DNA of 50,484 nucleotides from an uncultured archaeon (lineage in GTDB: Archaea; Aenigmatarchaeota; Aenigmatarchaeia; QMZP01; JAFGSV01), in assembly GCA_964616715.1 (NCBI GenBank), contig CAZTRL010000003.1, positions 1 through 50,484 on the forward strand, given 5' to 3'. A program made the translations under genes and the position numbers. The stretch's first letter is position 1, and every line of letters begins with the position of its first letter. The notes below the pieces were generated by a model. That model worked only from the letters and a program-made list of their open reading frames with translations. It had not been told where the DNA came from and did not search any database. Of this stretch, positions 3 to 23,233 are shown in pieces.

Positions 3-3000
3 TCCCGTGCTGTTGGTCCAGTAGTTGCCGCCAATCTCGGTCCCGACTGAATGTGTCCTGGTGCCGGCCTGCCTGCTCATGTTCCATGCATATTCGAAAG
101 GAGGAGCACTTCCATTGACATTGATTGTATTGTTGAAAAGATTGTTGTAAATGAGGTTGGGGCCATTCACGTCCAGCGGACTTCCGCTGAGGAGTATTCC
201 GTTGGTGCTCGAGATTATACTGTTCTTGATTGTCCCAATATCTGAGTACTGGAACACGAATCCGAAGGCGTTACCAAGTGAAGTCACATTGTCGAATATG
301 TTGTGGCCGGAGTCTGAGACGCGGAGGGCTACGGCATAGGGGCTGTCATACACCAAAAGGTTTGATACGTTAGTGTAGTTGGCCTCATAAAGGTACACGC
401 CTGCGAATTGGGCTCCCGAGACCGTGATGTTTTCCAAAGTGTTGTTAGAACTCCCCTCGATGCGTATGGCCCTGTAAGATCCGGCGATTATGCAGTTTGC
501 GATGGTCGCGTTCGTGGAGTTGTAGCCACTGCGATGAACACGGATAACATCGTTTATAGAAGAGCCTGAGAGCGTGTATCCGCGGCAGTCGAGAGTCGCA
601 TTGTTGGCACGGATATCGATGCAGGCAAAACCGCTAGCGTTCATGTCGGAGGACATGACGTAGACGCCGGGATGGTATATGCCAGCACACGATGTTATGG
701 TGTTATTGAAGTGGAAGTAAACGGAATCGTTCCCGACATTTCCGACTGTGTCGTTTATGTAGAGGGTCAAGGCATGGTAACCCACAGAAAGGTTCTGGAG
801 CGTAAGGTTGTCGCATCCGGGGATTGTCACATTGCCCTGGCCATCGAGGCTGTAGTAGCAGGCGTCAATTCCCGGGTCCGAGAAGCTGAATTTCAGGAAA
901 TTGCTGTCTGAATAGTTGTAAGAGATGTTCTCTGGCTCTATTATTGTCACAATCGGAGCCGTCCAGTCGTCGGTAAACTGAACAGTATCATGGGCTACGT
1001 TGTCTAAGGTGTCGTTCGCGTAAACGGAAAGGTTGTTAAGCCCCTCGACTACCGGGATTGAAGTCCCGTTTGTACAAAGGAAAGTTGTATTGCTGGTGTT
1101 GCCGTTGAGATTGTACCAGCACGTGTCGTTCTGCTTTGTGAACGTGAAGTTGAAATATGTGGCATTATAATAGGTCGTGCCGTTGGCAGGATAGGTTATG
1201 GTGAGAACCGGTATATTGGTATCTACAGTGAAGTTTCTTGATGTGGAATTGGAATTTGAGAATGTGTCGTTGCAGAAGAACTCGACCAAATGCTGACCGT
1301 CAGGCACCGAAGCGTTCACGCCCCAGAAGAAGGTGGAATTAGTCTTGTTCATGGAGATGTTCTGTCCGCTGTCAAGGGAGTAGAGGCAGGTTGAGCCGTT
1401 CTCTCCGGACTGAAGAGTGATATTGAAATATATGGTCTGCGTCGGATAGGTATCGTTCACCGGAATGACCTTAGTGAATTGTGGTGGCGTCTGGTCCAGT
1501 GTGAAGTACGTGGTCGTGGAGTTGGTGTTGTTACTGGTGTCGTTTGCGTAGACGGTTAGCATGTGCTGGCCGTCTGAGAGTTGGTCCATCGTCCCCGCCC
1601 ACATGTTACCGGTGATCGAGCAGTTGGTGGCGTTGAGCTGGCCGTCTATGTAGTAGTATGAGCAGTTGATATCGGAATACGTGAAGTTGAAGGCATTGCT
1701 CGAGGTCGTCGTGTTCTGCGGGATGACTATGGTTATGTCAGGTGGCGTGCCGTCGCAACCCAGCGTCTCGTTGTGGTACCATGTCATGTTCGTCCAGTCG
1801 TCAGTGCTCAGTCCTGTCTGCGCGTAGCAGCCTTTCTGGTCGTACTGCACCCACCACGTCCAGTTGAGCTGCTGGTTGGAGGCATTGCAGGCCTCGAGCG
1901 TTGTCGTCTGTGTCGTGTTGGCCATTGACGGCTTGCAGGCATCGCTTACTGTGAGCCAGAACGTGTCTCCGGTGGCGTTTGACGTGTAGTTCGTGTTCCC
2001 TGAAGTGTTGGCAGTGAACACGTAATCGCCTACGAGAAGCGTTGTTATGTTGGGATTGGAGCTGTTGGTGCCATTTGAGTAGAGGGAAACGCTTCCCGCA
2101 TCGCTGAACAGCATGTATCCTGTCGCGTTGATGCTCTCGTTGTCGTATATGGTGAGATTGTCCCTCGTGCCATTGAGGTGAAGGATGGTCGGGTTGGTGA
2201 TGTTCTGTATGACTTCATAGGTATAGCTGCTGCTGTTCATGTTGTTCGATGTGTCGTTTGCCCACCACGTGTAATCGTAAAGCCCCGCCCCGAGCTTCCC
2301 GATAGTGACGTTCCATTCAGTCGTCACATTCGATGCAGTATGATTGGTGCCATCGAAGTCCAGCTTGACGGTATCCACCATTTCATTGTCCGTCCAGGTC
2401 ATGTTGAACATATGGCTCCAGGGGTTGTACTGAGTACCGTTGGCACTGGTCTGCGTCGGGCCTGACCACTCCGGCGGAGTCCCGTCCGGCGCATAGTTGG
2501 TAAGGTTGATTGTGTACCAGAGCTCGTTATCCGTCCTGTTGAGGTTCCCTGCGGTATCGTTCCCCCACGCGAGGCAGGCGTATGTCGTCGCGTTGGTCAT
2601 GCTTGTGAAATTTAATGTTGCATCGCTTCCGTCTGGTGTCATCGTATGGTTTGTCCCGTTGCATACCAGCACCCCGCCGCTGAGTGTTTCGCTACCGTTG
2701 ATCATGTAGAATATGTAGCTCTCGTTGTCGGTATAGGAGAGGTTGGTGGGCGGCATGCTGGCGTCGAAGCTGATGTCTGGAGGCGTCCGGTCTATGTATA
2801 GCGTCCTCACGCCAGACTGGTTCGCTGTGACGTTGGTGCAGTTCACGTACCACTCATAGCTTCCCTCGGGAAGGGTGTAATTGGCATATACCGAGATGTC
2901 GGTGTCAGCTGCCGCGCTTGTCGTGTTGTATCCCGTGTCGTTTAGGAAGAGCGTGCAGCTTGCGGTAGCGTTGTCGCCGGTGTAGTTGAACACGAACTCT

Positions 3001-3164
3001 ATCGTGTCGTTGCTTCCGGTGGTGTAGGTCTCGTTTGGCGGGAGGCTGAGGTTGACTTTGTCTATTCCGGCGCCGAGGACCGAGAGCGCATACACCGAAA
3101 GTACCAGCACGAGGGCGAGGGAGAAAAGAGAAAGGTCCGCGTTGCGCACTGCCTTCATCATCAT
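3..3164 (-). CDS. Large secreted/surface glycoprotein, partial (C-terminus lies beyond the left window edge). It has a signal peptide, about 6 diverged Ig-like modules, then right-handed beta-helix (PbH1/NosD-like) repeats.
   Basis: The minus-strand frame opens at three consecutive ATGs (3164/3161/3158) and stays open to the window edge on hand translation. The ORF track lists no complete minus ORF here, as expected when the stop lies outside the window. The N-terminus MMMKAVRNADLSLFSLALVLVLSVYALSVLGAG looks like a signal peptide. Repeated modules end in (Y/W)xNDTxxN (AWGNDTAGN, WWANDTSNN, VYANDTSNN, FFCNDTFSN, VYANDTLDN, LYINDTVGN). The last ~230 aa in the window show beta-helix-like repeats (NATIANCIIAG, NNTLENITVSG, NYTNVSNLLVYD, HNIFDNVTSLG). 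N-x-S/T sequons are extremely frequent. Confidence 0.8.
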   Translation of the reverse strand, partial: MMMKAVRNADLSLFSLALVLVLSVYALSVLGAGIDKVNLSLPPNETYTTGSNDTIEFVFNYTGDNATASCTLFLNDTGYNTTSAAADTDISVYANYTLPEGSYEWYVNCTNVTANQSGVRTLYIDRTPPDISFDASMPPTNLSYTDNESYIFYMINGSETLSGGVLVCNGTNHTMTPDGSDATLNFTSMTNATTYACLAWGNDTAGNLNRTDNELWYTINLTNYAPDGTPPEWSGPTQTSANGTQYNPWSHMFNMTWTDNEMVDTVKLDFDGTNHTASNVTTEWNVTIGKLGAGLYDYTWWANDTSNNMNSSSYTYEVIQNITNPTILHLNGTRDNLTIYDNESINATGYMLFSDAGSVSLYSNGTNSSNPNITTLLVGDYVFTANTSGNTNYTSNATGDTFWLTVSDACKPSMANTTQTTTLEACNASNQQLNWTWWVQYDQKGCYAQTGLSTDDWTNMTWYHNETLGCDGTPPDITIVIPQNTTTSSNAFNFTYSDINCSYYYIDGQLNATNCSITGNMWAGTMDQLSDGQHMLTVYANDTSNNTNSTTTYFTLDQTPPQFTKVIPVNDTYPTQTIYFNITLQSGENGSTCLYSLDSGQNISMNKTNSTFFWGVNASVPDGQHLVEFFCNDTFSNSNSTSRNFTVDTNIPVLTITYPANGTTYYNATYFNFTFTKQNDTCWYNLNGNTSNTTFLCTNGTSIPVVEGLNNLSVYANDTLDNVAHDTVQFTDDWTAPIVTIIEPENISYNYSDSNFLKFSFSDPGIDACYYSLDGQGNVTIPGCDNLTLQNLSVGYHALTLYINDTVGNVGNDSVYFHFNNTITSCAGIYHPGVYVMSSDMNASGFACIDIRANNATLDCRGYTLSGSSINDVIRVHRSGYNSTNATIANCIIAGSYRAIRIEGSSNNTLENITVSGAQFAGVYLYEANYTNVSNLLVYDSPYAVALRVSDSGHNIFDNVTSLGNAFGFVFQYSDIGTIKNSIISSTNGILLSGSPLDVNGPNLIYNNLFNNTINVNGSAPPFEYAWNMSRQAGTRTHSVGTEIGGNYWTNSTG

Positions 3165-3297: not shown

Positions 3298-3567
3298 ATG
3301 GAACTGACCGTTCTCGAGGAAAAGCCTACCAAGCTCAGGCTCGAAGTGAAGGGGGAGAACCACACTCTTCTCAACATAGTCACGGAGTACGCATGGGAGG
3401 CAAAGGCCAAGCAGGCGTCCTACATGATAAAGCATCCCTACCTCTCGCAGCCCGAGCTGACGGTGATTTCTGCAAACCCGAAGAAGACCCTCTCGGACGC
3501 CGCCCAGCTGGTGATGGACAGGGCCAAGGAATTCAGGGTCGGCCTCGAGCGCGGCTTGAAGAAGTAG
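3298..3567 (+). CDS. rpoL: DNA-directed RNA polymerase subunit L (Rpo11)
   Basis: 89 aa. KLRLEVKGENHTLLNIV...IKHPYLSQPELTV matches the RBP11/RpoL signature (G-E-D/N-H-T-L-x-N followed by HP). Confidence 0.85.
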   Translation: MELTVLEEKPTKLRLEVKGENHTLLNIVTEYAWEAKAKQASYMIKHPYLSQPELTVISANPKKTLSDAAQLVMDRAKEFRVGLERGLKK

Positions 3568-3662: not shown

Positions 3663-4148
3663 ATGGAAGGTAACACGGAAACCATTGTGTATGTGATAGT
3701 GGGGATAGTCCTCGCGTGGGTCATAAACCAGGGGATGGCCGCGGCGCTCAGCACGGACATGCCGGTGGTCGCGGTGGAGTCGAATTCCATGGTCCCGGTA
3801 TTCTACAAGGGTGATATACTCGTCCTCCAGGGCGATGCCCCTTCGGACTATGCGGTCGGAGACGTCATAGTCTACTCGGTGGAAGGCAGGAGCGTGCCGA
3901 TAGTCCACAGGATAGTGAAGATAAACCCTGACGGGTCGTACCAGACCAAGGGAGACGCGAACAACGGCCAGCTGCCGTTCGAATACCACGTTGACGGGAG
4001 CGCGGTCCATGGCAAGGTCTCGGTGATAATACCCTATCTGGGATGGGTGAAGCTCGGCGTCACGGAATACGTGCTGCCGAACGTTATATATATTATATTA
4101 GCCGCAGTCTTAATAGGAGTAGTATACTACGGGAGGAGGTTGATTTAA
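3663..4148 (+). CDS. Signal peptidase I, archaeal/eukaryotic Sec11 (S26B) type
   Basis: The track start 3654 is GTG and the first ATG is 3663. An N-terminal TM segment is followed by VESNSMVPVFYKGDILV (Ser box), IVHRIV (His box) and KGDAN. Confidence 0.85.
   Translation: MEGNTETIVYVIVGIVLAWVINQGMAAALSTDMPVVAVESNSMVPVFYKGDILVLQGDAPSDYAVGDVIVYSVEGRSVPIVHRIVKINPDGSYQTKGDANNGQLPFEYHVDGSAVHGKVSVIIPYLGWVKLGVTEYVLPNVIYIILAAVLIGVVYYGRRLI
4135..4140 (+). promoter_or_regulatory. Shine-Dalgarno-like GGAGGT for tfs
   Basis: The sequence gggaggaggt ends 8 nt upstream of ATG 4148. This internal operon gene is also stop/start coupled (TAATG). Confidence 0.5.
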
Positions 4149-4471
4149 TGGAGTTTTGCCCCAACTGCAAGTTGACACTCGTCGCAAAGGACAAGGATGG
4201 AAAGAGGGTGCTCGTGTGCAGGAAATGCGGCCACGAGACGGACAAGTACAAGCCACTCAGGATTTCGGAGAAGGTCTCCAAGAGCCCGCTGGACAGTGTA
4301 GTCGTCATAGAGAAGAACGAGGAAGCGCTTCCTAAGACCAAGGTGACGTGTCCGCAGTGCAACCATAACGAGGCTGTGTGGTGGGTGCAGCAGACGAGGA
4401 GCGCCGACGAGGCCCCGACGGTCTTCTACAGGTGCACCAAGTGCAAGCACAGCTGGAGGGAATACGGTTGA
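4148..4471 (+). CDS. tfs: Transcription factor S / RpoM (TFIIS-like cleavage factor)
   Basis: 107 aa. It has two zinc ribbons (CPNC..CRKC and CPQC..CTKC). QTRSADEAPTVFYRCTKC is the TFIIS C-terminal ribbon with an acidic loop. ATG 4148 shares its A with the upstream TAA stop. The 4043 start in the ORF track is a spurious upstream extension. Confidence 0.9.
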   Translation: MEFCPNCKLTLVAKDKDGKRVLVCRKCGHETDKYKPLRISEKVSKSPLDSVVVIEKNEEALPKTKVTCPQCNHNEAVWWVQQTRSADEAPTVFYRCTKCKHSWREYG

Positions 4472-4501: not shown

Positions 4502-5641
4502 ATGTTAAGAGTTTTGGTTCTCGGGTCGAAGGAGTATCCTTTCGGCACCAATATGGGTGACGACCCCATCCCGAGTGGGGGCATGGAGACCTACGTGGAT
4601 GACCTCGCCCCGGAGCTCTCGAGGCTCTGCCGGCTCGTAATAGTCACGAGGAGGTTCAGGGGCACTAAGAGGAGGGAAACAAAAGACAACATCGAGGTTG
4701 TCAGGGTTCCCTGGCTGAAGGGCAAATGGCTCCGGAATCCTACATACAACAAGATGTCTTTTCTGGTATCGCTCGGTCTCATGAGGGACGCGGATATCGT
4801 CTATTCCAATGGCATAGTGTCGGGCATCGCGGGGCTCGTCCTCGGGAGGCTGTTTAGGAAGCCCAACGTCTACAGACCCGCCGGGACTGGATACCTGCAG
4901 TACGGATTCCCCCTCAGGCAGGCTCTCTACGCGATTGAGAAGTCTGTGCTCTCGAAGTCGAGCGCAGTCGTCTTCCATTCGGAGGGCGAGATGAGGAACG
5001 CGAGGAGGAACTACGGAATCCCGCTGCGTAACGGCCATGTGATACTGACAGGATTCCCCGTGGAGGAGTTCGCAGGAGTGGCTCCATCGCAGAAGGCTGT
5101 GCATGAGACCGTGATAAGCACCGTCTCGAGGTTCGTTCCGGTGAAGGGGCTTGAATACCTCATAGACGCATGCTCGCTTATCGGGGGGGACTACAGGTTG
5201 CTGATGGTGGGCTCCGGACCGGAGGAGGGGATGCTGAGGGGCCGTGTGAAAAGGCACGGCATAGGAGAGAAGGTCGAGTTCGCGGGCTTCAGGCACGACG
5301 TGCCGGCGATACTCGCGCGGACCGACATATTCGTGATATCATCGCTGTCGGAAGGCCTCCCGACGTCGCTTCTGGAAGCCATGGCCGCCGGATGCGCATG
5401 CGTCGTGACCGACATCGGCCTTCCGGTGGAGCACATGAAGACGGGGCTCGTCGTGCCCGCGAAGGACCCGGAGAAGCTTGCGAAGGCGATGGACATGCTG
5501 ATAAGGAAGCCCACCATGAGAAAGGAGCTCGGAAGAAACGCCAGGGAGTTCGTCAGGAGCCACTGCACCCAGAAGATGGCGGCCGAGAGCCACATGAGGC
5601 TTTTCCGCAGGCTGCTCTCCGCGGGGAAACGCACAAATTAA
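4502..5641 (+). CDS. Glycosyltransferase, GT4 (GT-B) family
   Basis: 379 aa. The C-terminal GT1/GT4 signature is FVISSLSEGLPTSLLEAMAAGCACVVTD. Confidence 0.85.
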   Translation: MLRVLVLGSKEYPFGTNMGDDPIPSGGMETYVDDLAPELSRLCRLVIVTRRFRGTKRRETKDNIEVVRVPWLKGKWLRNPTYNKMSFLVSLGLMRDADIVYSNGIVSGIAGLVLGRLFRKPNVYRPAGTGYLQYGFPLRQALYAIEKSVLSKSSAVVFHSEGEMRNARRNYGIPLRNGHVILTGFPVEEFAGVAPSQKAVHETVISTVSRFVPVKGLEYLIDACSLIGGDYRLLMVGSGPEEGMLRGRVKRHGIGEKVEFAGFRHDVPAILARTDIFVISSLSEGLPTSLLEAMAAGCACVVTDIGLPVEHMKTGLVVPAKDPEKLAKAMDMLIRKPTMRKELGRNAREFVRSHCTQKMAAESHMRLFRRLLSAGKRTN

Positions 5642-5664
5642 TAGCGGATGGGGTTATTATTGAT

Positions 5665-6585
5665 ATGACTGTGAAAAATGTACTCGTCACCGGAAGCAGC
5701 GGGACCGTTGGCACCAGGCTCTGCGAGAGGATGCTCAAGGATGGATACCACGTCACGGGTTTCGACCGTGTGGATAACAGGTGGGTCAGGGAAGTAGATG
5801 GCATAACCACCAAAGGCGATATCCTGAACGAGAAGGACCTGGAGAGGCTGGACAAGGACTACGACGTTGTCATCCACCTGGCGGCGAATGCCCGCGTGTA
5901 CAACCTCGTCGTGGACCCGTCGAAGGCCATGGAGAACTTCCAGGGGCTTTTCAACGCGCTCGAATTCTGCAGGAAGAACGGCATAAAGAGGTTCATCTTC
6001 GCATCAAGCAGGGAAGTCTATGGGAATTCCCACAAGACGAAGCATTCGGAGGACGAGGCGTACGTGAAGAACTGCGAGAGCCCCTACACCGCCTCGAAGA
6101 TAGGCGGCGAGGCGCTGGTCAATGCCTATTCCCAGTGCTACGGGATTGATTCCGTGATAGTGAGGTTCTCCAATGTCTACGGCATGTATGACGAGAGCGA
6201 CCGGGTGATACCGCTCTTCATAAGGCTGACAGATGAAGGGAAGGACCTTGTAGTCTTCGGCAAGGAGAAGTTCCTGGATTTCACCTACATAGACGACGCA
6301 GTGTCAGGCGTCATCAGGTGCGTGGAGAGGTTCGAGAAGGTCAGGGGAAACGTCTTCAACATAGCATCCGGAAAGGCGTACTCCATAGAAAGGATTGCGG
6401 CGATGATACAGGAGAAGATGAAGGGGGTCAACCGTGTGATAATCAAGGACTCCCGCACCGGGGAGGTCGAGAGGTTCGTCGCCGACACATCGAAGGCGGA
6501 GAAGCTCCTCGGCCACCGGTCAAGGACGGATATAGGCGAAGGGATAGACAAGGCCATAGAATGGTACAGGAAGACGGCCCGCTGA
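5665..6585 (+). CDS. NAD-dependent sugar-nucleotide epimerase/dehydratase (extended SDR)
   Basis: In-frame ATG 5665 gives MTVKNVLVTGSSGTVGTRL (a GxxGxxG Rossmann motif). YTASKIGGE is the YxxxK motif. The upstream 165 codons of track ORF 5170.. overlap the GT4 gene in another frame and are R/G/E-rich. Confidence 0.85.
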   Translation: MTVKNVLVTGSSGTVGTRLCERMLKDGYHVTGFDRVDNRWVREVDGITTKGDILNEKDLERLDKDYDVVIHLAANARVYNLVVDPSKAMENFQGLFNALEFCRKNGIKRFIFASSREVYGNSHKTKHSEDEAYVKNCESPYTASKIGGEALVNAYSQCYGIDSVIVRFSNVYGMYDESDRVIPLFIRLTDEGKDLVVFGKEKFLDFTYIDDAVSGVIRCVERFEKVRGNVFNIASGKAYSIERIAAMIQEKMKGVNRVIIKDSRTGEVERFVADTSKAEKLLGHRSRTDIGEGIDKAIEWYRKTAR

Positions 6586-6646
6586 CGGTCCGAGAATCTT
6601 CCGGAACCATATAAATCCTCCACTCTCATTAGTTTTAGGTGGCTCG

Positions 6647-7744
6647 ATGAATACGGCATTCGTTCTCAGCAGGCACGGCTCGTTCAGAGAGATATCAGAC
6701 AAGATGGGAGGCGACGACTCCTTCATGGCGGAGCTGTTCGCCATAAGGAAGTATGCGGAGAAGTCGGACAGGGTTTTCGTGTTCTCCCACGACCGCGAGA
6801 GTTTTGAGCGCCTGATGCCTGAAAACTGCACCCACGTCAGGTTCCATGGACCTCTACTTTACACGCTGTTCGGCTGGATCGTGATGCTCCTCTATGTGGC
6901 AAGGCATGGAATAAGGATAGTCAGAGTCGAGACCGTCACCGGGCTGCTCCACGCGCTCTTCGTCAACAGGTTGACCCGGGCAAAGGTGGTTCTCGACTAT
7001 CTCTACCTCTGGCACCAGCCCATGGGAGACGGCGTGAAGAAGGGATTTGTGAGGAAGCTGGAATCATTCCTCCTTGGCTTCGCCGACTACTTCATAGTCG
7101 CAAACGATGATGTCGGGAAGTTTGCAGAAGGCAGGGGCAAGGTGCTCGACATAGGCGCAAACGGCGTCATCCTGGACGTGTTTGACAAGGCCCTGCCGGA
7201 CACATCCATATCGCGGCTCAGCGGGAAGAAAATCATATTCGTCGGGAGACTCATAGGGATAAAGGACCCGCTCACCCTCATAAGGGCCTACAGGGAAGTC
7301 CGGAAGAAGCGCAGGGACATCCACCTCATTGTCTGCGGCGATGGCGAACTTAGAGAGGAGTGCGAGAAGGTGGCGGATGGAAGCGTCGTCTTCCTCGGCT
7401 TCGCGAAGAACGTGCCTTCCCTTCTGAAGGCCTCCGACGTCTTCATCCTTCCGTCGCGCTTCGACGCATCGCCGAGGGCGCTCGTCGAGGCCATGGCGGT
7501 GGGACTGCCGTGCATAGCCACCAGAGTCGGTGGGGTTCCAGGTTATCTGGACGGAGGCTGCGGCGTCCTGGTGGAACCCGGGAACGTGGGGATGCTCGCT
7601 GAAAAGATGGAATATATCCTGTCGCATGGCAAGGAAGCCGGAAGGCTAGGCCGGAAGGCGAGGGAAAGAGTGGAGGAGAAGTACAATCTGGGCAAGAATC
7701 TCGAGAAGGAGATAGGCTTCATGATGAAGGAGACGGATGCATGA
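6647..7744 (+). CDS. Glycosyltransferase, GT4 family
   Basis: 365 aa. It carries the FILPSRFDASPRALVEAMAVGLPCIATRVGG motif. Its stop overlaps the next start (ATGA at 7741). Confidence 0.8.
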   Translation: MNTAFVLSRHGSFREISDKMGGDDSFMAELFAIRKYAEKSDRVFVFSHDRESFERLMPENCTHVRFHGPLLYTLFGWIVMLLYVARHGIRIVRVETVTGLLHALFVNRLTRAKVVLDYLYLWHQPMGDGVKKGFVRKLESFLLGFADYFIVANDDVGKFAEGRGKVLDIGANGVILDVFDKALPDTSISRLSGKKIIFVGRLIGIKDPLTLIRAYREVRKKRRDIHLIVCGDGELREECEKVADGSVVFLGFAKNVPSLLKASDVFILPSRFDASPRALVEAMAVGLPCIATRVGGVPGYLDGGCGVLVEPGNVGMLAEKMEYILSHGKEAGRLGRKARERVEEKYNLGKNLEKEIGFMMKETDA

Positions 7745-8673
7745 AAAGGCCGCTAGTGTCGTTTGTGATACCAGTCTATAATTCGGAGAGGACCATAGGG
7801 AAGTGTGTCGAATCCGTGCTTGCCCAGAGAGTTGAAAAGGAGGTCATAGTCATAGATGATGGCAGCACCGACCGCACGGGGGCCGTCATCAGGAAGTTCG
7901 GGAAGCGAATAAGTTATCGGCTGCAGAAGAACAGCGGCCCCGCTACAGCCAGGAACGTTGGAAAGAAGCGTGCCAGAGGCAGGTTCATCGCATTCATAGA
8001 CGCCGATGTGGTGCTGCCCAAGGAGTGGGCGAAAACGGCGGTCGCGCTGATAGAGGAGAAGGGGGCAGCGGCCGTCGGTGGCCCCGGGGTCAGTGCCGAG
8101 GACAGCGTGGTGGCCAGGTCACTCAACCTTCTCCTGTACGGGAAGCCCGGAACCTCCGAGGGCTATGTTAACTCGCTTGCGACCATGGATGCGCTCTACG
8201 CGAGGGAGGCGCTCGAAGGCATGAGCTTTGACGAGTCTTTCACGTCAAGCTCCGGGGAGGACCCGGACCTCAACTTCAGGCTGGTTAAGTCTGGAAAGAA
8301 GCTGCTCCTCTCCTCAAGGCTCTGGGTGGAGCACGACCATCCGACCAGCCTCGGCGGGATAGTAAGGAAATGGTACAAGTACGGGAAGCACTACCCTCTT
8401 CTTTACGCAAAGCACAAGGAGCTGAGGGGGAAGGAGTACTACGCGAGGATATCGTATTTTCCGCTGCTGATGGCCTTTCTTCTGCTCTCGCCGCTGAGCA
8501 CAGTCCTCCTTTATGCGGCAGTGGCCCAGTTGTGCGTTCTGTGGCTGTCCTATGCGGTGATTGGCATCAGGGTCGGTGCAGGCGCGGGGGTGGCGGCGTT
8601 TGCGACAATACACTCGGCGAAGCAGATGGCGCAGCTGGCTGGTACCACCGTGGGGCTCAGGAAGCTGCTTTGA
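7741..8673 (+). CDS. Glycosyltransferase, GT2 (GT-A) family with a hydrophobic C-terminus
   Basis: 310 aa. Motifs are VSFVIPVYNSERTIGKCVESVLAQ, VIVIDDGSTDRT and FIDADV (DxD). There are C-terminal TM segments. Confidence 0.85.
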   Translation: MKRPLVSFVIPVYNSERTIGKCVESVLAQRVEKEVIVIDDGSTDRTGAVIRKFGKRISYRLQKNSGPATARNVGKKRARGRFIAFIDADVVLPKEWAKTAVALIEEKGAAAVGGPGVSAEDSVVARSLNLLLYGKPGTSEGYVNSLATMDALYAREALEGMSFDESFTSSSGEDPDLNFRLVKSGKKLLLSSRLWVEHDHPTSLGGIVRKWYKYGKHYPLLYAKHKELRGKEYYARISYFPLLMAFLLLSPLSTVLLYAAVAQLCVLWLSYAVIGIRVGAGAGVAAFATIHSAKQMAQLAGTTVGLRKLL

Positions 8674-8674
8674 A

Positions 8675-9730
8675 TCACTTCCTGCCGAAGACCCTCCAGC
8701 TCCTGCCGCCGAGCGAGGTCACCGATATGTCTCTCAGGCCGGCGTTCTTGGCCCACTGCATCGCCTCTTCCTTCGTGTAGTAGGTGTTTATAGGCGTCCC
8801 AAGAAAGTCGTAAGAGTCGGCAAGCTTCACCCTGAACGGGAATTTGGCGTAGTTCTTGAAAGGGAGCTTTTCCGCGAGGCCATTCGCACCCACCCTCTTC
8901 AGTATTTTGTGGACTCCGTTCATGGAATGATATAGCGTAGCCGGTAGGTAGCAGAAGTAGTAGAGCAACCTCTGCGGCATCTTCAGCGTGGCTTTCCTTA
9001 TCGTGCCCTCAAGGAACCTAGTCTTGAATGCCCTACCTTCGCTCCCGTAGAGCCATATGAATATCTCGTCGCCCTTGCGCAGGAGCTTTACCAGGCTATC
9101 GTAACCCTTCTCGGGCTGGGGCAGATGGTGCAACACACCTATGGACATCACGAAGTCGAAGGCCTTCCTGAAGGGCGGGTTGTATATGTCGCCCTGCACT
9201 ATGCTGACGTTTGGCATCTTCCCGCAGTTCCTGTAGGCTGCCTCGACAGCCTCGCTGAGGTCGAAGCCGACGACCTCGGCTCCATACTTGGCCGCATAAT
9301 ACGTGTGCCTGCCGAATCCGCAGCCTGCGTCGAGCACGGTCTTGCCCCTGAAGAATGCGGGTGTCTTCGGGTGGACGTAGTTGAGGAAGTTCTTCTCGTA
9401 TTCTCTGTGCATCTCCGAGAACACGTTCCACTGGAAGCCGAAAGACTTCGAAGTCCTCTCCTTGACTTCCTGGGACTTGCCCGTCTCGGCAGTTCCGGAA
9501 GAGATGGCGGGATTGCCGTGCCTCTCCCTGAAAGAGTCCATGAGCTGCCTGCTTATCATAGATTCCGGAAGCATCCTGGGTATGCCGTGTATCACCGGGT
9601 AGCTGTTGCCGCACCCCTTGCAGGTGAGCAGTCCCTCGGCTATCTCTCTTCCATCCTTTTCGAGCACTCTGAGGCTCAGCCCCTTCCCGCAGGAAGGGCA
9701 TATAAGCATCGACAGCAGTCTCGGTTTCAT
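8675..9730 (-). CDS. Class I SAM methyltransferase with an N-terminal Trm112-like zinc ribbon
   Basis: 351 aa. CPSC..CKGC plus YPVIHGIPRML form the Trm112-like ribbon. VLDAGCGFGRHT is SAM motif I. FDFVMSIGVLHHL is also present. Confidence 0.8.
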   Translation of the reverse strand: MKPRLLSMLICPSCGKGLSLRVLEKDGREIAEGLLTCKGCGNSYPVIHGIPRMLPESMISRQLMDSFRERHGNPAISSGTAETGKSQEVKERTSKSFGFQWNVFSEMHREYEKNFLNYVHPKTPAFFRGKTVLDAGCGFGRHTYYAAKYGAEVVGFDLSEAVEAAYRNCGKMPNVSIVQGDIYNPPFRKAFDFVMSIGVLHHLPQPEKGYDSLVKLLRKGDEIFIWLYGSEGRAFKTRFLEGTIRKATLKMPQRLLYYFCYLPATLYHSMNGVHKILKRVGANGLAEKLPFKNYAKFPFRVKLADSYDFLGTPINTYYTKEEAMQWAKNAGLRDISVTSLGGRSWRVFGRK

Positions 9731-9778
9731 GGAACCAACATTTTGTTTATCATGAGAATGTTATAAATTGTTTAATTG

Positions 9779-11611
9779 TCAGCTGCAGGGAAGCCTGTAG
9801 ACCCTTACGAGCGGGGCGCCGTAGTACATGACTGAATATGCGGGGTCCCCCACTTCCATGCAGCGTCTTGAGACTTCGTTGAAGTATACCCGGGAGTCGA
9901 TGAGGCCGAACCTTGACATGAGGACGATGTAATCTATGTTCTCGAAGTCCTCTGTGCTGTTCACTCCGTCATAGCCTATTATCCTCTTGTCGGGGCTGAG
10001 AATGGTCGCCTGCTCGAAGTTGAACTCCCCGAGCCCGCCGCCTGAGACATCCATCCTGTCGGCAATCTGCCCTATGTCCCCGTACTCGTACGTGTTGAAT
10101 ATGTTGTTCGCCATGGGAACGTATATTGAGGAGCCGTTAGCGGCGTTCTCCTGCAGCCAGTATGCCGCGTCCAGGTACGCCTCCCCCGACCATTCAACCT
10201 CATAGAGCCCGCTCCCGTAGACGCCTCCTGTCCCTCCTACGATTGAGTTGAAGTAGGCGTCCGTGTGGCCAGACATTATGGCGAATGCGCCGGGGACGAT
10301 TATCAGCATGGCTACGAACGCTGTCAGGGCCGTCATGTTGTCCTTGAGCACCTTCGGGAGCCTTCTTGACCTGAGGGCCCGGTCAGCGCCTATGCCCGCC
10401 AGGATGCCTAGGAAAAGGAACGACTGGATGAACTGCTGGACACCGTTGTATGCGACGTTGACTATGCTCAGCACGACCATCGGCGTGAGGGCGCTCAGGA
10501 GGATGAGGAAGGAGACGCGGTTGTCCAGGCTAATCGTGTCCTTCAGTGCGTGGTAGGCGCCGAAGATGGAAAGCGCGAGAATGGGCACGGGCATCGTAGA
10601 GGCAGCCAGCGTGAATATGTAAGCCCACGAAGGGCTGCCTATGACGCTTCCCATGAAATAGACGGTGGGAAGCCCTCCGCTTATGTGGTTAAGGTAATAA
10701 CCCATCCACCAGTAAAACCTCTTGAAGCTGTCGTACCAAAGCCACGGCCACGCGAGCACCCACACGACTGGAGTTATGAAGATTAATGATAGTATGCCCG
10801 CGGAGACGTTGTGAAACCTTCCATGCATGGTGTCACTGAATGTTTTCTTTAGACGGTCTCTGTAAGATACGACTAGCCAGAGAAGTATGACGAATGGTAT
10901 GAATATGGACTGGGCCTTTGTCGTTAGCGTCAGTCCCATCATGACCCCGGCAAGTGCGCCGTACCTCCAGTCCTTTATACCCCTCCAGAAGAACCAGAGC
11001 GTTATGATCCAGAATATCGAGACCGACAGGTCCATAAGGACGTACATGGACTGCCCGAAGAACCTCGGCATGAATATTATCGAGAGCACGGAGAATATGG
11101 CCGCTCTCCTGCTGTACGCCCGGTTGATGAATATGTACACGAAAAGGAGACCCGCTGCAGTCAGCAGCAGTATTGCCAGCCGGTGCGCCATGATTGAGGG
11201 TATGAGGTCCAGACTGCCGCCGTTAAGGTACCACACGCCGGCCCAGGTGATTCCCGAGAGCGTGAGGGGAAGCTTCGGCCTGCCGTCCCAGCACCTGCTT
11301 CCCCAGACAGCGTCGTAATCACCGGTGATGAAGTCGTTTGTTATGTCGCAGAAGAAAAGGTCTTCGGTGCCGGTAGCCATGGAATAGAGCGAGTATGCCC
11401 TCGCCTTGGCCTGCGCTATGTACCTGTTCTCGTCCCATGTCACCCCGGTCGAGGGGAGCGACCACAGTGCGAGCGAGAGGTACAGCAGTATCAAGGGGGC
11501 CGCTACGAGTATGTCCTTCCTCCTGTTTGAAAAGTGTTTTCCGTGACTCGGACGGCGAGGCCTCCACTTGTGTCTTATTATTATCGGTCTCCCCGTTTTA
11601 AGCAGCGCCAT
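9779..11611 (-). CDS. GT-C fold membrane glycosyltransferase (ArnT/PMT, GT39/GT83-like)
   Basis: 610 aa. It has about 12 hydrophobic segments plus a soluble C-terminal domain of about 170 aa. The first external loop carries the acidic motif VTWDENRY. There is no WWDYG motif, so I do not call it AglB. Confidence 0.75.
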   Translation of the reverse strand: MALLKTGRPIIIRHKWRPRRPSHGKHFSNRRKDILVAAPLILLYLSLALWSLPSTGVTWDENRYIAQAKARAYSLYSMATGTEDLFFCDITNDFITGDYDAVWGSRCWDGRPKLPLTLSGITWAGVWYLNGGSLDLIPSIMAHRLAILLLTAAGLLFVYIFINRAYSRRAAIFSVLSIIFMPRFFGQSMYVLMDLSVSIFWIITLWFFWRGIKDWRYGALAGVMMGLTLTTKAQSIFIPFVILLWLVVSYRDRLKKTFSDTMHGRFHNVSAGILSLIFITPVVWVLAWPWLWYDSFKRFYWWMGYYLNHISGGLPTVYFMGSVIGSPSWAYIFTLAASTMPVPILALSIFGAYHALKDTISLDNRVSFLILLSALTPMVVLSIVNVAYNGVQQFIQSFLFLGILAGIGADRALRSRRLPKVLKDNMTALTAFVAMLIIVPGAFAIMSGHTDAYFNSIVGGTGGVYGSGLYEVEWSGEAYLDAAYWLQENAANGSSIYVPMANNIFNTYEYGDIGQIADRMDVSGGGLGEFNFEQATILSPDKRIIGYDGVNSTEDFENIDYIVLMSRFGLIDSRVYFNEVSRRCMEVGDPAYSVMYYGAPLVRVYRLPCS

Positions 11612-11671
11612 GGAAGTTGCACCATCCCCATCCGGTCGGGCCCGGACACGGTTCGCCAGGCCCGGAATCGC

Positions 11672-12403
11672 TCACTTCTCCCCCACGAGTATGACGTTCT
11701 TTATGTCTATCAGGCAGTCGTCGTCCGTAACCGTCATATTGTATGCATCTTTGAAGTAGCCGCCCGCATTGGCGTGCAGGTCGAATATCTTGTCCTGGTT
11801 CTCCTTGCTTATGCCGCTGTTGACGAGCCAGTTCTTGACGCTCATCTGCTTTATTGTGTGGATTATGACAGATACGTTACTGAAACCTGATTTCTTCATC
11901 ATGTTGACGAGGTCGTCTTCCATGAACGTCAGCCTCTCTTCCTTGTACTTGAATATCTTCATGTAGTCGTCCTTTACCGTTTCGGAGGGGGGAACGCCCT
12001 CTGCGAGTATCATCTTCCCGCCCTTCTTGAGGATGCGGAAGCATTCATCCATGGCCTTTTGGGTGTCTTCCAGAATGTGGTGGAAGACGAGCCTCGCCGT
12101 AATCTTGTCGAAAACCTCGCCGCAGAATATGCTTTCGCGGATGTCCCTCTTTATGAAATACTTGTTGCCGCTCCAATTGCTGTGCTCAAGCATGTCCTGG
12201 GACTTGTCGATTCCTATGACCTCCCGGACAAGCGGCGATATGGAATGCGCTATCACTCCGGTGCCCGTCCCTATGTCAAGCACCATGTCCGTGTCCCTGA
12301 AGCCGCCGGCTTCTATGAACACATCGATGAATGACTTGTCATTCACCCACGAAAGATTGTTGTATTTCTTGGATCTCATCTTCCAGAATTCTGAATCATT
12401 CAT
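11672..12403 (-). CDS. Class I SAM methyltransferase
   Basis: The track start 12409 is GTG and the ATG is at 12403. Motifs are VLDIGTGTGV (motif I) and ILKKGGKMIL. Confidence 0.8.
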   Translation of the reverse strand: MNDSEFWKMRSKKYNNLSWVNDKSFIDVFIEAGGFRDTDMVLDIGTGTGVIAHSISPLVREVIGIDKSQDMLEHSNWSGNKYFIKRDIRESIFCGEVFDKITARLVFHHILEDTQKAMDECFRILKKGGKMILAEGVPPSETVKDDYMKIFKYKEERLTFMEDDLVNMMKKSGFSNVSVIIHTIKQMSVKNWLVNSGISKENQDKIFDLHANAGGYFKDAYNMTVTDDDCLIDIKNVILVGEK

Positions 12404-12422
12404 GTTCACATTCTGAACGCGA

Positions 12423-12433
12423 ATATATAAAAA
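12423..12433 (-). promoter_or_regulatory. TATA box (minus strand tttttatatat) for the methyltransferase/GT-C/methyltransferase operon
   Basis: It is centred about 25 nt upstream of ATG 12403, with leaderless geometry. Confidence 0.45.
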
Positions 12434-12565
12434 GCTTGAACCTTCGGAGGAATGGCGCCGTCTGATTCCATTTCAGCCAAGGCCGCCGACAAGCCATGGA
12501 TAACGATGGATTCCGCGCCCAAAGTTATTTATCCTGCTCTGTCTAGATAGTAACAGGTACCGATT

Positions 12566-13288
12566 ATGGTCGAGGGCATAAGGGAATTGAGGAAGAAGTG
12601 CCAGCCGGCTGGGGACAAGTTCTGGCTTGACAGGATAATGAGGAAGGTCTCAATATACGTGACCAAGCTGTTCCTCGTCGCGGGAATAAGCGCTAACCAG
12701 GCGACGCTGCTTTCCACGTCCCTCATGTGGCTGTCATTCATCCCGCTCATGTTCACCCAGTTCTGGTATGGTGCATTTCTTAGCGGTTTCATCCTCATGG
12801 TAGCCTATCTCTTCGACTATGTGGACGGCGAGGTCGCCAGGTACAGGGGGAGCAGGTATCTCGGGCGGCTTCTCGATGTGGCCTCCCATGACATGTTCTA
12901 TGTGGTGTTCGTCTTCATAGGGTTCGGCCTGTATTTCAGGACGTTCCAGATATGGTATGTAGTGGCGGGTCTCTCTGCGACCCTGTCCGTGCTCATGGCG
13001 AGGCTTCACCAGATGAGGCTGGAGTACATGAACATCTCCGCGAAGGTGAGGAAGGAGAACGGCAGGGCGGCGAGGCTGGCCTACAGGCTCACGCTGGCAA
13101 ACACGTTCCTTCCGGTGCTCTACATCCTCTCGCTGCTTGACCTGAATGCGTTTCTCCTGGCGTTCTACGGCGCATACAACCTCATCTTCTGGCTGGCATG
13201 GTTCGCAAGGAAGGGATGGTTCAACGTGCATGATACCGGAAAGGTGAAGGAAGTCGACGTGTGGAAAGAGATAGAAAAGCATGTATGA
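12566..13288 (+). CDS. CDP-alcohol phosphatidyltransferase family membrane protein
   Basis: 240 aa and polytopic. DYVDGEVARYRGSRYLGRLLDVASHD approximates the family motif D-G-x2-A-R-x7/8-G-x3-D-x3/4-D. Confidence 0.75.
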   Translation: MVEGIRELRKKCQPAGDKFWLDRIMRKVSIYVTKLFLVAGISANQATLLSTSLMWLSFIPLMFTQFWYGAFLSGFILMVAYLFDYVDGEVARYRGSRYLGRLLDVASHDMFYVVFVFIGFGLYFRTFQIWYVVAGLSATLSVLMARLHQMRLEYMNISAKVRKENGRAARLAYRLTLANTFLPVLYILSLLDLNAFLLAFYGAYNLIFWLAWFARKGWFNVHDTGKVKEVDVWKEIEKHV

Positions 13289-14086
13289 ATGCATGACGAG
13301 CTTATTAAATTTGCGCTCAATTTTTTGAATTGTGGTTATATGTCACTGAAGATGCTTGCTCCATCTTTCCGCAACAGGTTTCTGAGGGCTTCGGAGAACC
13401 TGGGAAAAGGGACGGACCTGCTGAACGTCGGCTGCGGGGATGGCGAATACAACAGGAAGCTCTCGGGCAGTTTCACTGTGACGCACGGCATTGACATAAA
13501 CGAGGACGAGATAAGGTATGCATCTTCCATCCCCGGGAATTCACGCTTCATGGTCGGAAGCGCATGCGAGATGCCGATAAGGAGCGGCATGTTCAGCAGT
13601 GTATGCTGCATAGACGTGATAGAGCACATAGATGATGACATGCCCGTCATACGGGAGATTTCAAGGGTGATGAAGAAGGGCGGCAAGCTTGTCATATCGG
13701 TGCCAAACAGGAATTTTCCCTTCACGTATGACCCTGTAAACGCGTTCCTGAGGATGTTTGGGAAGAAGCTCGGGGTAGGCATCTGGGGCTTCGGGCACCG
13801 CAGGCTGTATGACGCGGACGGTCTTTCGCGGGCACTGAAGGAGAACGGCCTCGAGGTGGAGGAGGTCCAGTACCTGAACAGCTACTTCTCGGGACTCGTG
13901 GAGAACTACGTCTCCAACGTACTCTACAGGTTCCTGAAGCCGAAGAAAGGCGTAAGAAAGGAAGGCAGGGAACCTCCGAGAGCGCTCCAGCGGTTGACCG
14001 ATGTCATACTGGATATCGACAAGAGGCTGTTTGCGGATTCCAAGGTCAGCATCGGCATAATGATAAGGGCGAGGAAGGTGGGATGA
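13289..14086 (+). CDS. Class I SAM methyltransferase
   Basis: 265 aa. Motifs are LLNVGCGDGEY (motif I), CIDVIEHIDDD and KKGGKLVISVP. It starts immediately after the upstream TGA. Confidence 0.8.
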   Translation: MHDELIKFALNFLNCGYMSLKMLAPSFRNRFLRASENLGKGTDLLNVGCGDGEYNRKLSGSFTVTHGIDINEDEIRYASSIPGNSRFMVGSACEMPIRSGMFSSVCCIDVIEHIDDDMPVIREISRVMKKGGKLVISVPNRNFPFTYDPVNAFLRMFGKKLGVGIWGFGHRRLYDADGLSRALKENGLEVEEVQYLNSYFSGLVENYVSNVLYRFLKPKKGVRKEGREPPRALQRLTDVILDIDKRLFADSKVSIGIMIRARKVG

Positions 14087-15444
14087 TGAGGGTTGCGTTC
14101 GTGTTCCCGCCTCTCACGATGAAGGAGAGGTACAGCAAGAGTGTGGGCGACATCGGAGGCAATCTCGCCCCGCTGGGCCTGGCCTACCTTGCCGCGGTCT
14201 TGAGGCAGGACGGCCACGAGGTCATGATACTGGACGCTCCGGCCCTGAGGCTCGGCGCGGATGATGTCGTCAGAAGGCTCTCGGATTTCGGCCCGGAGAT
14301 GATCGGGATGACCGCACTGACATCGACGATCCACAGGACGGCCGAGATGAGCAGGCTCATGAAGAAGTCCTTCCCACGGGCGGCCATAGTCATAGGCGGG
14401 CCGCATGCGACCATAATGCCGGAGGACACGCTGAAAAAGACAGGCGCGGACGTGGTGCTGGCAGGCGAGGGCGAGATTACGGTAAGGGAGATAGCGCGGG
14501 ACTTGGGGCGGTTCAGGAAGAAGAGGATAGTCGTTGGGGAGCGCGTCGAGGACCTGGATTCCGTGCCATTCCCGGCGTGGGACCTCCTTCCGGTACATCT
14601 GTACACATCACTGCCGAACAACTACAAGAAGTCAAGGCACGTCCTCAACATGGTGACAAGCAGGGGGTGCCCCTTCAGGTGCACGTACTGCTGCAAGGAC
14701 CTCTATGGGGTGATGTACAGGACCAGAAGCGTCGACAACGTCATGGCCGAACTGAGGTTCCTCAGGAAGAGATACGGCATAAGGGAAGTGGCGTTCTGGG
14801 ATGACCTGTTCACGATGAAAAGGGACTGGGTGATGGAATTCTGCGACCGTCTGATAGCAGAGGGCATGGACATGACGTGGTCGTGCGAGACCAGGGTGAA
14901 CTATGTCGACTACGAGATGCTGAAGAAGATGAAGCAGGCCGGCTGCTGGAACGTGTTCTACGGGATAGAGGCGGGAGACCAGAAGCTTCTGAACAACATA
15001 AGAAAGGGGACCACGCTTGATATGATAAGGAAGGCCGTGAGGATGACCAGGAAGGCCGGGCTCGAGATAAGGGGCTCCTTCATGATCGCGCTTCCCGGAG
15101 AGACCCCGGAGCTTGCCAGGAAGACCATAAAGTTTGCGATAGAGCTCGACCCCGACTACGCGCAGTTCTCGATAACGACGCCGTTCCCCGGGACCGAGCT
15201 CTACGAGAAGGCGGAAGAGTGGGGAACGCTCAGCAAGGACTTCAACGAATACAACGAATGGAACCCGGTGTTCGTCCCAAGGGGCTACAGGAACGCGGGT
15301 GAGATAAGGAAGATGCACAAGGAGGCTTTCAGGAGCTTCTACCTGAGGCCCAAGTACATCGTGAAGAGGATAATGAAAATCAGGTCTCCAGACGATGTCG
15401 TGAAGAATATTCTCGGCCTTAGGATGATACTGGGGTTCAACTGA
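14083..15444 (+). CDS. B12-binding-domain radical SAM enzyme (class B rSAM)
   Basis: 453 aa. The N-terminal cobalamin-domain-like region is PLGLAYLAAVLRQDGHEVMILDA..GGPHAT..GEGE. SRGCPFRCTYCC is the CxxxCxxC motif. There is an ATGA overlap with the upstream methyltransferase. Confidence 0.85.
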   Translation: MMRVAFVFPPLTMKERYSKSVGDIGGNLAPLGLAYLAAVLRQDGHEVMILDAPALRLGADDVVRRLSDFGPEMIGMTALTSTIHRTAEMSRLMKKSFPRAAIVIGGPHATIMPEDTLKKTGADVVLAGEGEITVREIARDLGRFRKKRIVVGERVEDLDSVPFPAWDLLPVHLYTSLPNNYKKSRHVLNMVTSRGCPFRCTYCCKDLYGVMYRTRSVDNVMAELRFLRKRYGIREVAFWDDLFTMKRDWVMEFCDRLIAEGMDMTWSCETRVNYVDYEMLKKMKQAGCWNVFYGIEAGDQKLLNNIRKGTTLDMIRKAVRMTRKAGLEIRGSFMIALPGETPELARKTIKFAIELDPDYAQFSITTPFPGTELYEKAEEWGTLSKDFNEYNEWNPVFVPRGYRNAGEIRKMHKEAFRSFYLRPKYIVKRIMKIRSPDDVVKNILGLRMILGFN

Positions 15445-15445
15445 T

Positions 15446-16390: not shown

Positions 16391-16406
16391 TATGTATGAT
16401 TCGGCT

Positions 16407-17132: not shown

Positions 17133-17182
17133 AGATTCAGTATGGACGTGATACTTAAATTTGGATTTTATCAATATTATGT

Positions 17183-18115: not shown

Positions 18116-18137
18116 AGGCTCTCCGGTTGGTGATGGC

Positions 18138-19214: not shown

Positions 19215-19253
19215 AATATTAAAACCGGAACTATCTATGAAACAGGTGCTTGG

Positions 19254-20603: not shown

Positions 20604-20604
20604 A

Positions 20605-21867: not shown

Positions 21868-21930
21868 GAATTGGTAGCGATTTGGGAATTTCATTAAAAG
21901 CTGGAAGCAGTTAAACACAAGTGTGAAGGT

Positions 21931-23229: not shown

Positions 23230-23233
23230 ACAT

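Follow-up and report, generated by a model that had tools for sequence, protein, structure and literature searches.

The window analyzed here, the 50,484-bp contig CAZTRL010000003.1 (GenBank assembly GCA_964616715.1) of an uncultured archaeon of the Aenigmatarchaeota, encodes at its left end the amino terminal part of a giant secreted protein that is extraordinarily rich in N-glycosylation sequons. Sequons (N-[^P]-[ST]) occur 92 times in the 1054 available residues, corresponding to 87.3 per 1000 aa or one per 11.5 residues, which falls within the range of 85–95 counted by hand in an earlier, sequence-only reading of this DNA. The protein is probably a membrane-anchored, N-glycan-coated, adhesin-like stalk with a carbohydrate-directed head and not a lattice protein of the surface layer (S-layer). 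We infer, from the evidence below, its actual glycosylation, the source of its glycan, the C-terminal anchor of this particular copy, and its role in adhesion or host interaction.

The sequon excess is not compositional, because composition-preserving shuffles (n = 2000) yield 28.9 ± 4.5 sequons with a maximum of 48, and the mirror motif [ST]-x-N, with 28 occurrences, stays at chance level. Seventy percent of the 132 asparagines sit in sequons. NxT outnumbers NxS by 67 to 25, although threonine and serine occur 141 and 98 times in the whole fragment; N-P-[ST] is found once and N-x-[ST]-P not at all. The other open reading frames (ORFs) of the window, when pooled, contain 3.65 sequons per 1000 aa and 3.1% Asn, of which 12% lies in sequons, so that the giant protein is 24-fold denser. 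Within it, the density is 98 per 1000 aa over the immunoglobulin (Ig)-like region and 60 per 1000 aa over a terminal beta-helix. Lysine (1.0%), arginine (1.4%), and glutamate (2.3%) are rare, as had been read from the sequence, but the most abundant residue is threonine (13.4%) and not asparagine (12.5%).

A contrary explanation would treat the sequons as a by-product of a composition rich in Asn, Thr, and Ser (together 35% of residues), with the protein un- or sparsely glycosylated and the nearby glycan genes producing an exopolysaccharide, a glycolipid, or the glycans of an S-layer. The shuffled and mirror-motif counts, the avoidance of proline at +1 (a single exception) and +3, and the preference for threonine at +2 all speak against this explanation, which is very improbable. 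A composition artefact was rejected on these shuffles together with two further observations, described below: sequon residues are better conserved than other residues, and the modules of low-sequon relatives lack the loading.

The first of these comes from an ortholog encoded in the GTDB genome CAZGWZ010000001.1 (L004), which is 66% identical over 716 aligned columns and is itself cut by a contig end. Its sequon density is 86.6 per 1000 aa, and 54 of 63 sequon positions are common to the two proteins. Asparagine is conserved at 87% of positions inside sequons and 64% elsewhere, and Ser/Thr is kept at 92% of sequon +2 positions and 66% elsewhere; the same residues are thus far better conserved in sequons than outside them, contrary to what a by-product of composition would give. 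In a strain variant (L005, positions 1470-2549 of Ga0315542_1026695, aligned to 2085-3164 of the window), every sequon is kept at 98% identity although residues flanking sequons have changed, and five of the seven amino acid differences fall in residues 8-51, around the signal peptide junction. These alignments indicate that the sequons are under purifying selection. Of the earlier description of a heavily N-glycosylated cell-envelope protein, a secreted envelope protein with selected sequons is therefore retained, while the glycosylation itself is deduced.

The gene occupies the minus strand, and machine translation of 3..3164 gives 1054 codons with zero stops, confirming the open frame of at least 1054 aa with a signal peptide that had been translated by hand. 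The start codon is at 3164, and an in-frame stop lies six codons 5′ of this first ATG. The first 33 residues have the anatomy of a Sec export signal, with a charged (K/R) n-region, a hydrophobic core of 20 residues, and a GAG/IDK junction; cleavage at this junction is predicted. Residues 11-34 form the sole hydrophobic stretch of the fragment, and the junction, of the form A/G-x-G followed by I-D/N, is kept in the relatives P0001, P0002, P0006, P0136, P0144, P0237, and P0274. The mature part of the fragment has a mass of ~112 kDa and an isoelectric point of ~4.05. A scan for bacterial-type promoters and terminators near the gene returned nothing, as is expected for an archaeal host; TATA-like elements are visible by eye upstream. 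The parts of the gene, in the order of translation, are the following:

3..3164, minus strand: giant surface-protein gene, 5′ part, 1054 codons (translation, upstream stop, 92 sequons)
3066..3164, minus strand: Sec-type signal peptide, aa 1-33, MMMKAVRNADLSLFSLALVLVLSVYALSVLGAG, with predicted cleavage before IDKV
2205..3065, minus strand: Ig-like modules 1-3, aa 34-126, 127-228, and 229-320 (hidden Markov model (HMM) E 1e-15, 3e-12, and 1e-20; 11, 10, and 7 sequons)
1944..2204, minus strand: second-type Ig-like domain, aa 321-407 (11 sequons; unmatched by the module HMM; putative fold)
1749..1943, minus strand: Cys-rich, Trp-rich insert, aa 408-472 (4 Cys, 5 sequons; conserved in the L004 ortholog)
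708..1748, minus strand: Ig-like modules 4-7, aa 473-558, 559-649, 650-734, and 735-819 (HMM E 1e-22 to 4e-17; 8, 10, 9, and 7 sequons; 2 Cys each)
3..707, minus strand: NosD/Beta_helix-type right-handed parallel beta-helix, aa 820-1054, truncated where the contig stops (14 sequons)

The seven copies of the ~90-aa module were delineated by an iterated profile seeded from four obvious repeats, and each harbors 7–11 sequons and usually two cysteines. The sequence-only reading had described about six modules ending in (Y/W)xNDTxxN. The motif [YWFC]xND[TS]xxN does occur at six module ends (aa 200, 301, 539, 630, 715, and 802) among seven occurrences in total, but one of the six begins with phenylalanine, and the profile recovers seven copies plus one Ig-like domain of a different type. 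Matches to this second-type domain in the exhaustive search described below span query residues ~213-432 (e.g., in P0189, P0208, and P0169), and repeats resembling it are seen by eye in P0005 and P0008.

The beta-helix that had been recognized after the modules is borne out by two Pfam families above their curated cut-offs over aa 820-1054: NosD (PF05048; E=1.9e-17, 63.8 bits vs. a cut-off of 23.6) and Beta_helix (PF13229; E=3.2e-11, 43.5 bits vs. 25.9). The NosD match denotes membership of a fold family and does not imply the copper/N2O-reductase function of NosD. The only other Pfam match at E<=0.01 is a weak one to Big_13 (PF19077), which at 19.8 bits is below its cut-off of 27; no S-layer family is matched, and NCBIfam yields no match to the giant protein. 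Any kinship of the module with Big_13 is thus distant and unmodelled, although one relative (P0001) scores 78.6 bits to this family.

The structure prediction and Foldseek searches that the sequence-only reading had proposed for the modules give a fold but no specific family. A single module, modelled with AlphaFold2 (AF2) from a 44-row module alignment, is predicted as a six-strand beta-sandwich with a predicted local distance difference test (pLDDT) score of 78. When this model is compared to the PDB by Foldseek, only generic Ig, FN3, PKD, and BIg matches are returned, all at E>0.06, such that no specific structural family can be named. Superimposed on the DSSP string of the modelled module, the sequons lie, in our reading, mostly at the ends of strands and in turns, among them the NDT hairpin. 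The model of the whole fragment is of low confidence, including over the second-type Ig-like domain (aa 321-407), and it is used solely for its coarse resemblance to a rod of beta-sandwiches; its best Foldseek matches are the tandem BIg rods of SiiE, the 1.5-MDa ice adhesin, and GhpA.

The module belongs to a very large family. An exhaustive HMMER search with aa 1-840 of the giant protein, counted as representatives of clusters at 50% identity, returns 7026 relatives at E<=1e-3, 2927 at E<=1e-10, and 492 at E<=1e-30, whereas a word-indexed homolog search finds only 14 and badly under-reports the family. Many relatives are 2000–7000 aa long. Four of them, annotated as hypothetical, Ig-like domain-containing, or beta-helix repeat-containing proteins, are 34–42% identical to the giant protein and share its ~90-aa module and N-terminal domain (MFC1768800.1, the modules only):

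MBN1896595.1 (P0135), Aenigmarchaeota: 2782 aa with 200 sequons; zero Pfam matches
UCD02666.1 (P0144), Aenigmarchaeota: carries a LamG domain
MBN2331341.1 (P0274), Aenigmarchaeota: beta-helix embedded among the modules
MFC1768800.1 (P0244), Nanoarchaeota: 5701 aa with 428 sequons; 34% identical, in the module region only

Sequon density is 72–75 per 1000 aa in P0135, P0244, and P0274. Over the 149 best representatives, it ranges from 5 to 95 per 1000 aa with a median of 53, and three of these 149 equal or exceed the giant protein, placing it in the top ~3%. The low-density members with a source name (n = 3) are bacterial (Deltaproteobacteria and Desulfuromonas), whereas the named high-density members are DPANN archaea. 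When the modules of both sets are aligned to one common profile, the low-density relatives (295 modules) show 1.6 sequons per module and the hairpin ATDxAGN, while the high-density relatives (1054 modules) show 7.4 sequons per module and the hairpin ANDTAGN. Across 100 aligned modules, each of five columns is a sequon in 44–84% of the copies, and in the high-density set, the sequons recur at the same four or five module columns. The giant protein conforms to this fixed-column family in all seven copies (E 3e-12 to 1e-22).

Because the two sets, aligned to one profile, differ in sequon number (1.6 vs. 7.4), the loading appears to be a lineage-specific retrofit of a shared fold that tracks the domain of life with general N-glycosylation. 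That the bacterial copies of the module largely lack sequons is also difficult to reconcile with sequons arising as a by-product of composition. Literature searches found no paper on this module family or its sequon loading. On the basis of these comparisons, the giant protein is seen as the extreme of a large uncharacterized family that is already present in the databases but unannotated in Pfam and NCBIfam.

The modules are combined with different heads and in different numbers. The L004 ortholog lacks modules 5 and 6, and the head domain of the relatives may be a beta-helix, a LamG domain, or none detected. Proteins neighboring the giant gene are 42–90% identical between the window and L004, and therefore, at 66%, the giant protein is not unusually fast-evolving in sequence; it varies instead in which modules and head domain it contains. 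In most complete relatives, the C-terminus consists of a transmembrane (TM) helix followed by either a basic tail or a cytoplasmic tail of several hundred residues, and it is not of the canonical PGF-CTERM type. By analogy to these relatives, the full-length giant protein is likely to comprise 2000–3000 aa and to have a type I topology.

In the Aenigmarchaeota metagenome-assembled genome JAFGFG010000006.1 (L006), in which the giant gene encodes P0135, the gene directly downstream of it (18374-19750) encodes a 458-aa K/E-rich coiled-coil protein. This protein is homologous (BLASTP E=7e-60) to aa 1851-2287 of P0144, i.e., to its cytoplasmic tail after the TM helix. One cytoplasmic partner is thus fused in one genome and independently encoded in another, a hint that the two sides of the membrane may be coupled.

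The beta-helix itself invites a more catalytic explanation, in which the protein is a secreted or tethered polysaccharide-degrading enzyme with the Ig-like modules as spacers, feeding on or breaching host or environmental glycans. The NosD and Beta_helix matches and the same beta-helix among the modules of P0274 are in keeping with such an enzyme, and analogous proteins of Nanobdella are read as pectin-lyase-like and attacking the glycosylated host wall (bioRxiv 10.1101/2023.10.27.564410). Sequence searches, on the other hand, gave no match to a characterized lyase or hydrolase family; those against solved structures, with both the whole protein and the beta-helix, returned nothing at E<=10. 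The beta-helix is also dispensable, given that none is detected in P0135 and that P0144 has LamG in its place, and the most conserved and selected features reside in the sequon-laden stalk. A role primarily as an enzyme is thus unlikely, and it overlaps with the adhesin-like stalk, whose head could likewise act on carbohydrates.

The closest described counterparts are also found in DPANN archaea. The Nanobdella proteins combine Ig-like folds with a pectin-lyase beta-helix, have 36–52 predicted sites in 908–1320 aa, and would, as proposed for them, target the envelope of the host (bioRxiv 10.1101/2023.10.27.564410). They resemble the giant protein in being exported DPANN proteins with Ig-like folds, a parallel beta-helix, many predicted sites, and a proposed role at cell–cell contacts or the host envelope. 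They differ in phylum and in density (~40 per 1000 aa vs. 87 for the giant protein and 98 for its Ig region), with the comparison being one by description only. The SPEARE and other giant proteins of Nanohaloarchaeota are likewise giant, membrane-anchored, extracellular DPANN proteins with Ig/FN3-like arrays and a supposed role in host interaction (PMC10266531; Hamm et al. 2019 as cited there). Unlike these, the giant protein has no protease or nuclease domains in its 1054 aa; its composition also differs, the halophile proteins being acidic, and extreme sequon loading has not been described for them. A SPEARE-type protein was rejected as an identification because Pfam finds no protease or nuclease domain in the available 1054 aa.

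Bacterial BIg adhesins, such as Salmonella SiiE and Marinomonas MpIBP, would share with the modelled protein an extended rod of tandem ~90-aa beta-sandwiches and a ligand-binding region, and homologs of the same module occur in Deltaproteobacteria and Desulfuromonas. The bacterial adhesins are stiffened by Ca2+, are not N-glycosylated, leave the cell by a type I system, and stay held in the outer membrane. In contrast, the giant protein employs a Sec signal peptide, has a likely C-terminal TM anchor, and carries 7–11 sequons per module.

Archaeal S-layer proteins are typically large, acidic, Ig-like, and N-glycosylated (PMC5744192, PMC2948927), and the sequence-only reading had left the choice between an S-layer-like protein and an adhesin undecided. 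In SlaA of Sulfolobus acidocaldarius, 31 sequons are spread over 1395 aa, and a frequency of one site per 30–40 residues has been called "remarkably high" (PMC2948927). The giant protein is similar to SlaA in its size, acidity, paucity of Lys and Arg, and Ig-like domains, with the many N-glycans of SlaA matched here by predicted ones. It is about four times denser (SlaA, 22 per 1000 aa), however. SlaA forms a lattice with SlaB, and no homology of the giant protein to SlaA is detected.

That the giant protein is the main lattice-forming S-layer glycoprotein would be in line with a proposed S-layer protein of the DPANN archaeon Nanobdella, which combines Ig-like folds with numerous predicted sites (bioRxiv 10.1101/2023.10.27.564410), with the location of the gene near a signal peptidase and glycan genes, and with a Foldseek match to the Deinococcus HPI S-layer protein, albeit at rank 37 and with the low-confidence model. 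Yet the S-layer proteins of Aenigmatarchaeota are predicted to be of an MSTP-like beta-sandwich type (MSTP/DUF1608-like) (bioRxiv 10.1101/2024.05.28.596244), and Pfam finds no S-layer family in the giant protein. The absence of two modules from a 66%-identical ortholog and the variable length and head of the positional homologs are hard to fit to a lattice geometry, family members reach ~7000 aa and have long cytoplasmic tails, and heads of the beta-helix kind are typically found in proteins that act on or bind carbohydrates. The S-layer option is thus quite unlikely. The adhesin-like stalk is favored over it because the relatives are TM-anchored and have varying heads, the model is a rod of beta-sandwiches, and the Nanobdella proteins provide a precedent.

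Beyond the giant gene, the best named matches of the ribosomal protein L10e are from Candidatus Aenigmarchaeota (DPANN) at ~80% identity. The strain is present in JGI samples 3300031552 and 3300031699. Three genes separate the giant gene from the glycan genes:

3298..3567, plus strand: rpoL, RNA polymerase subunit L (Pfam RNA_pol_L_2; gene calls on L001-L003), divergent from the giant gene
3663..4148, plus strand: archaeal type I signal peptidase (NCBIfam TIGR02228 sigpep_I_arch, 99.4 bits vs. a cut-off of 51.85)
4148..4471, plus strand: tfs, transcription factor S/RpoM-like zinc ribbon (Pfam Zn_ribbon_TFIIS, E=1.2e-19)

The signal peptidase gene is divergently transcribed at ~0.5 kb from the start of the giant gene, a position kept in L004 and L006, and its product is the enzyme expected to cleave the signal peptide of the giant protein. 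The first glycosyltransferase gene, of the GT4 family, starts at 4502, ~1.3 kb from the giant start codon. The island had been said to abut the giant gene directly; the two are indeed close, but these three genes intervene. The order giant gene, rpoL, signal peptidase I, tfs, GT4, epimerase, GT4, (radical-SAM enzyme), GT2, and, further on, PMT_2 is kept in three genomes, i.e., the window, L004, and L006, so that MBN1896595.1 of L006 resembles the giant protein in its locus as well; it differs, as do UCD02666.1, MBN2331341.1, and MFC1768800.1, in module number and head domain. In L006, an extra 507-aa protein (8307-9830), which has no counterpart in the window, is encoded in the interval from rpoL to the giant gene; a TM helix lies at its N-terminus, and its C-terminal part is very rich in Cys and resembles an EGF or knot domain.

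The island is of the size previously estimated (~37 kb), and nearly every gene in it is glycan-related by Pfam and NCBIfam. Its transferases comprise three GT4, five GT2, and three GT-C (PMT_2) enzymes. They are accompanied by a Wzx/AglR-like flippase, five S-adenosylmethionine (SAM) methyltransferases, two B12-radical-SAM enzymes, and two LPG_synthase_TM proteins, and the sugar genes include a WbpB/E/D-like trio, two uridine diphosphate (UDP)-sugar dehydrogenases, two sugar nucleotidyltransferases, and three epimerase/dehydratases. The principal features are as follows:

4502..41576: glycan island, ~37 kb
9779-11611, 23234-24778, and 31060-32610: three PMT_2 enzymes (GT-C, ArnT-like; Pfam)
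16407-17174, 30087-31025, and 32601-33272: GT2 genes near PMT_2 (Pfam)
15446-16390 and 33256-34236: two LPG_synthase_TM genes (Pfam)
14083-15444, plus strand, and 27481-28896, minus strand: two B12-binding radical-SAM enzymes inside the island
24738-27433, minus strand, 35093-36400, minus strand, and 37371-38726, plus strand: trio of UDP-N-acetylglucosamine 3-dehydrogenase (archaeal type), DegT aminotransferase, and hexapeptide acetyltransferase, together with two UDP-sugar dehydrogenases

Two of the three PMT_2 enzymes cluster with GT2 and LPG_synthase_TM genes. These clusters resemble sets of a polyprenol-phosphate-sugar synthase, a flippase, and an external transferase that would modify glycans outside the cell, although such GT-C/PMT_2 and LPG_synthase_TM proteins could also act on lipids or other acceptors, which would fit unused sequons. 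One of the UDP-sugar dehydrogenases is AglM-like (E=3e-156), and the trio and the UDP-sugar dehydrogenases may form a pathway to a 2,3-diacetamido uronic acid, as in methanogen N-glycans. The B12-radical-SAM enzymes, of which L004 and L006 have one further copy between the GT4 and GT2 genes, and the five methyltransferases suggest unusual sugars that may be C-methylated or otherwise modified. Also inside the island is a nitroreductase–methyltransferase fusion (20605-21867, plus strand). Exceptions to its glycan content are a quinolinate phosphoribosyltransferase of NAD synthesis (38693-39526, plus strand) and a CDP-alcohol phosphatidyltransferase (12566-13288, plus strand).

Four features make the giant protein a plausible acceptor of the island's glycan: the linkage kept in three genomes, the presence of a flippase and of an AglM-like enzyme, and the signal peptidase encoded close by. 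The Wzx/AglR-like flippase and the AglM-like dehydrogenase, together with the failure to find Wzy, Wzz, or an ABC exporter in the island, also argue against an island devoted to other products and a protein that is sparsely glycosylated. Elsewhere in the window, a 194-aa protein (45783-46367, plus strand) with an N-terminal hydrophobic anchor and no Pfam match has 5 sequons vs. 1.5 expected (P=0.008, shuffling) and is possibly a further N-glycoprotein of this archaeon.

Several points weigh against the adhesin-like stalk and its link to the island. The C-terminus of the giant protein is missing, since the ORF is open at the left end of the contig, and it was not recovered: an exact-protein look-up of the neighboring signal peptidase found only contigs of 1.5–2.5 kb, a scan of GTDB genomes found a single 64–66%-identical ortholog likewise cut at a contig end, and a metagenome scan found only the strain variant, of 2.5 kb. 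P0135, the closest complete positional homolog, has no beta-helix detectable by Pfam, and thus the architecture past residue 1054 is uncertain. The AF2 model of the whole fragment, based on a 15-sequence alignment, has a pLDDT of 49.5, and because no solved structure matches by sequence, no catalytic or binding residues can be assigned in the beta-helix. The genes between the giant gene and the island are housekeeping genes, and a gene order common to three genomes, all from one lineage, may stem from common descent and not functional coupling. In addition, the 50-kb window has no STT3 Pfam match and no WWDYG motif in any frame; because it therefore lacks AglB/STT3, the transferase is assumed to be encoded elsewhere. 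This absence would also suit a protein whose sequons are not used.

On the basis of the preferred adhesin-like stalk, the following mechanism can be proposed. The giant protein would be exported by Sec, and its signal peptide would be removed by the signal peptidase I encoded 0.5 kb away. Outside the cell, it would form a rod of at least nine beta-sandwich domains, in which each ~90-aa module presents 7–11 sequons at fixed positions. An AglB-type oligosaccharyltransferase would load these sites with the lipid-carrier glycan produced by the 37-kb island, and the loaded rod would become a tightly packed brush of N-glycans, a kind of N-linked mucin. Such a brush may protect against proteases, extend and hydrate the rod, and display lineage-specific sugars. 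The beta-helix head would most likely act, by binding or cleavage, on polysaccharides or glycoproteins of a partner cell or substrate, while a C-terminal TM helix, as in the complete relatives, would anchor the protein in the membrane.

A bolder hypothesis, possible but on balance doubtful, is that the ~90-aa module is a dedicated scaffold for N-glycan display. DPANN archaea would have taken a bacterial-type BIg module and hard-wired four to five sequons into it at constant positions on its surface (e.g., ATDxAGN to ANDTAGN). The outcome would be a mucin-like glycocalyx rod that is co-inherited with its own signal peptidase and 37-kb island and is coupled through a TM helix to a conserved cytoplasmic coiled-coil partner, either fused or separate. 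The glycan brush, and not the polypeptide, would then be the functional surface by which hosts are recognized or viruses and proteases evaded.

Glycosylated Ig-like and beta-helix surface proteins of DPANN archaea have already been noted in the literature, and it is the extreme member that is new. Although DPANN archaea, which live in attachment to other cells, have very small genomes, ~40 kb of this 50-kb contig goes to one giant surface protein and glycan genes. Provided that its at least 92 sites are occupied, the density of N-glycans on the protein would be among the highest of all prokaryotic proteins known from sequence. The DPANN and bacterial copies of the module amount to a natural experiment, and a clean one, on the incorporation of sequons into a fold, and the family and its conserved locus, which are unannotated in Pfam and NCBIfam, provide targets for glycoproteomics and cryo-electron tomography in the few DPANN archaea under cultivation.

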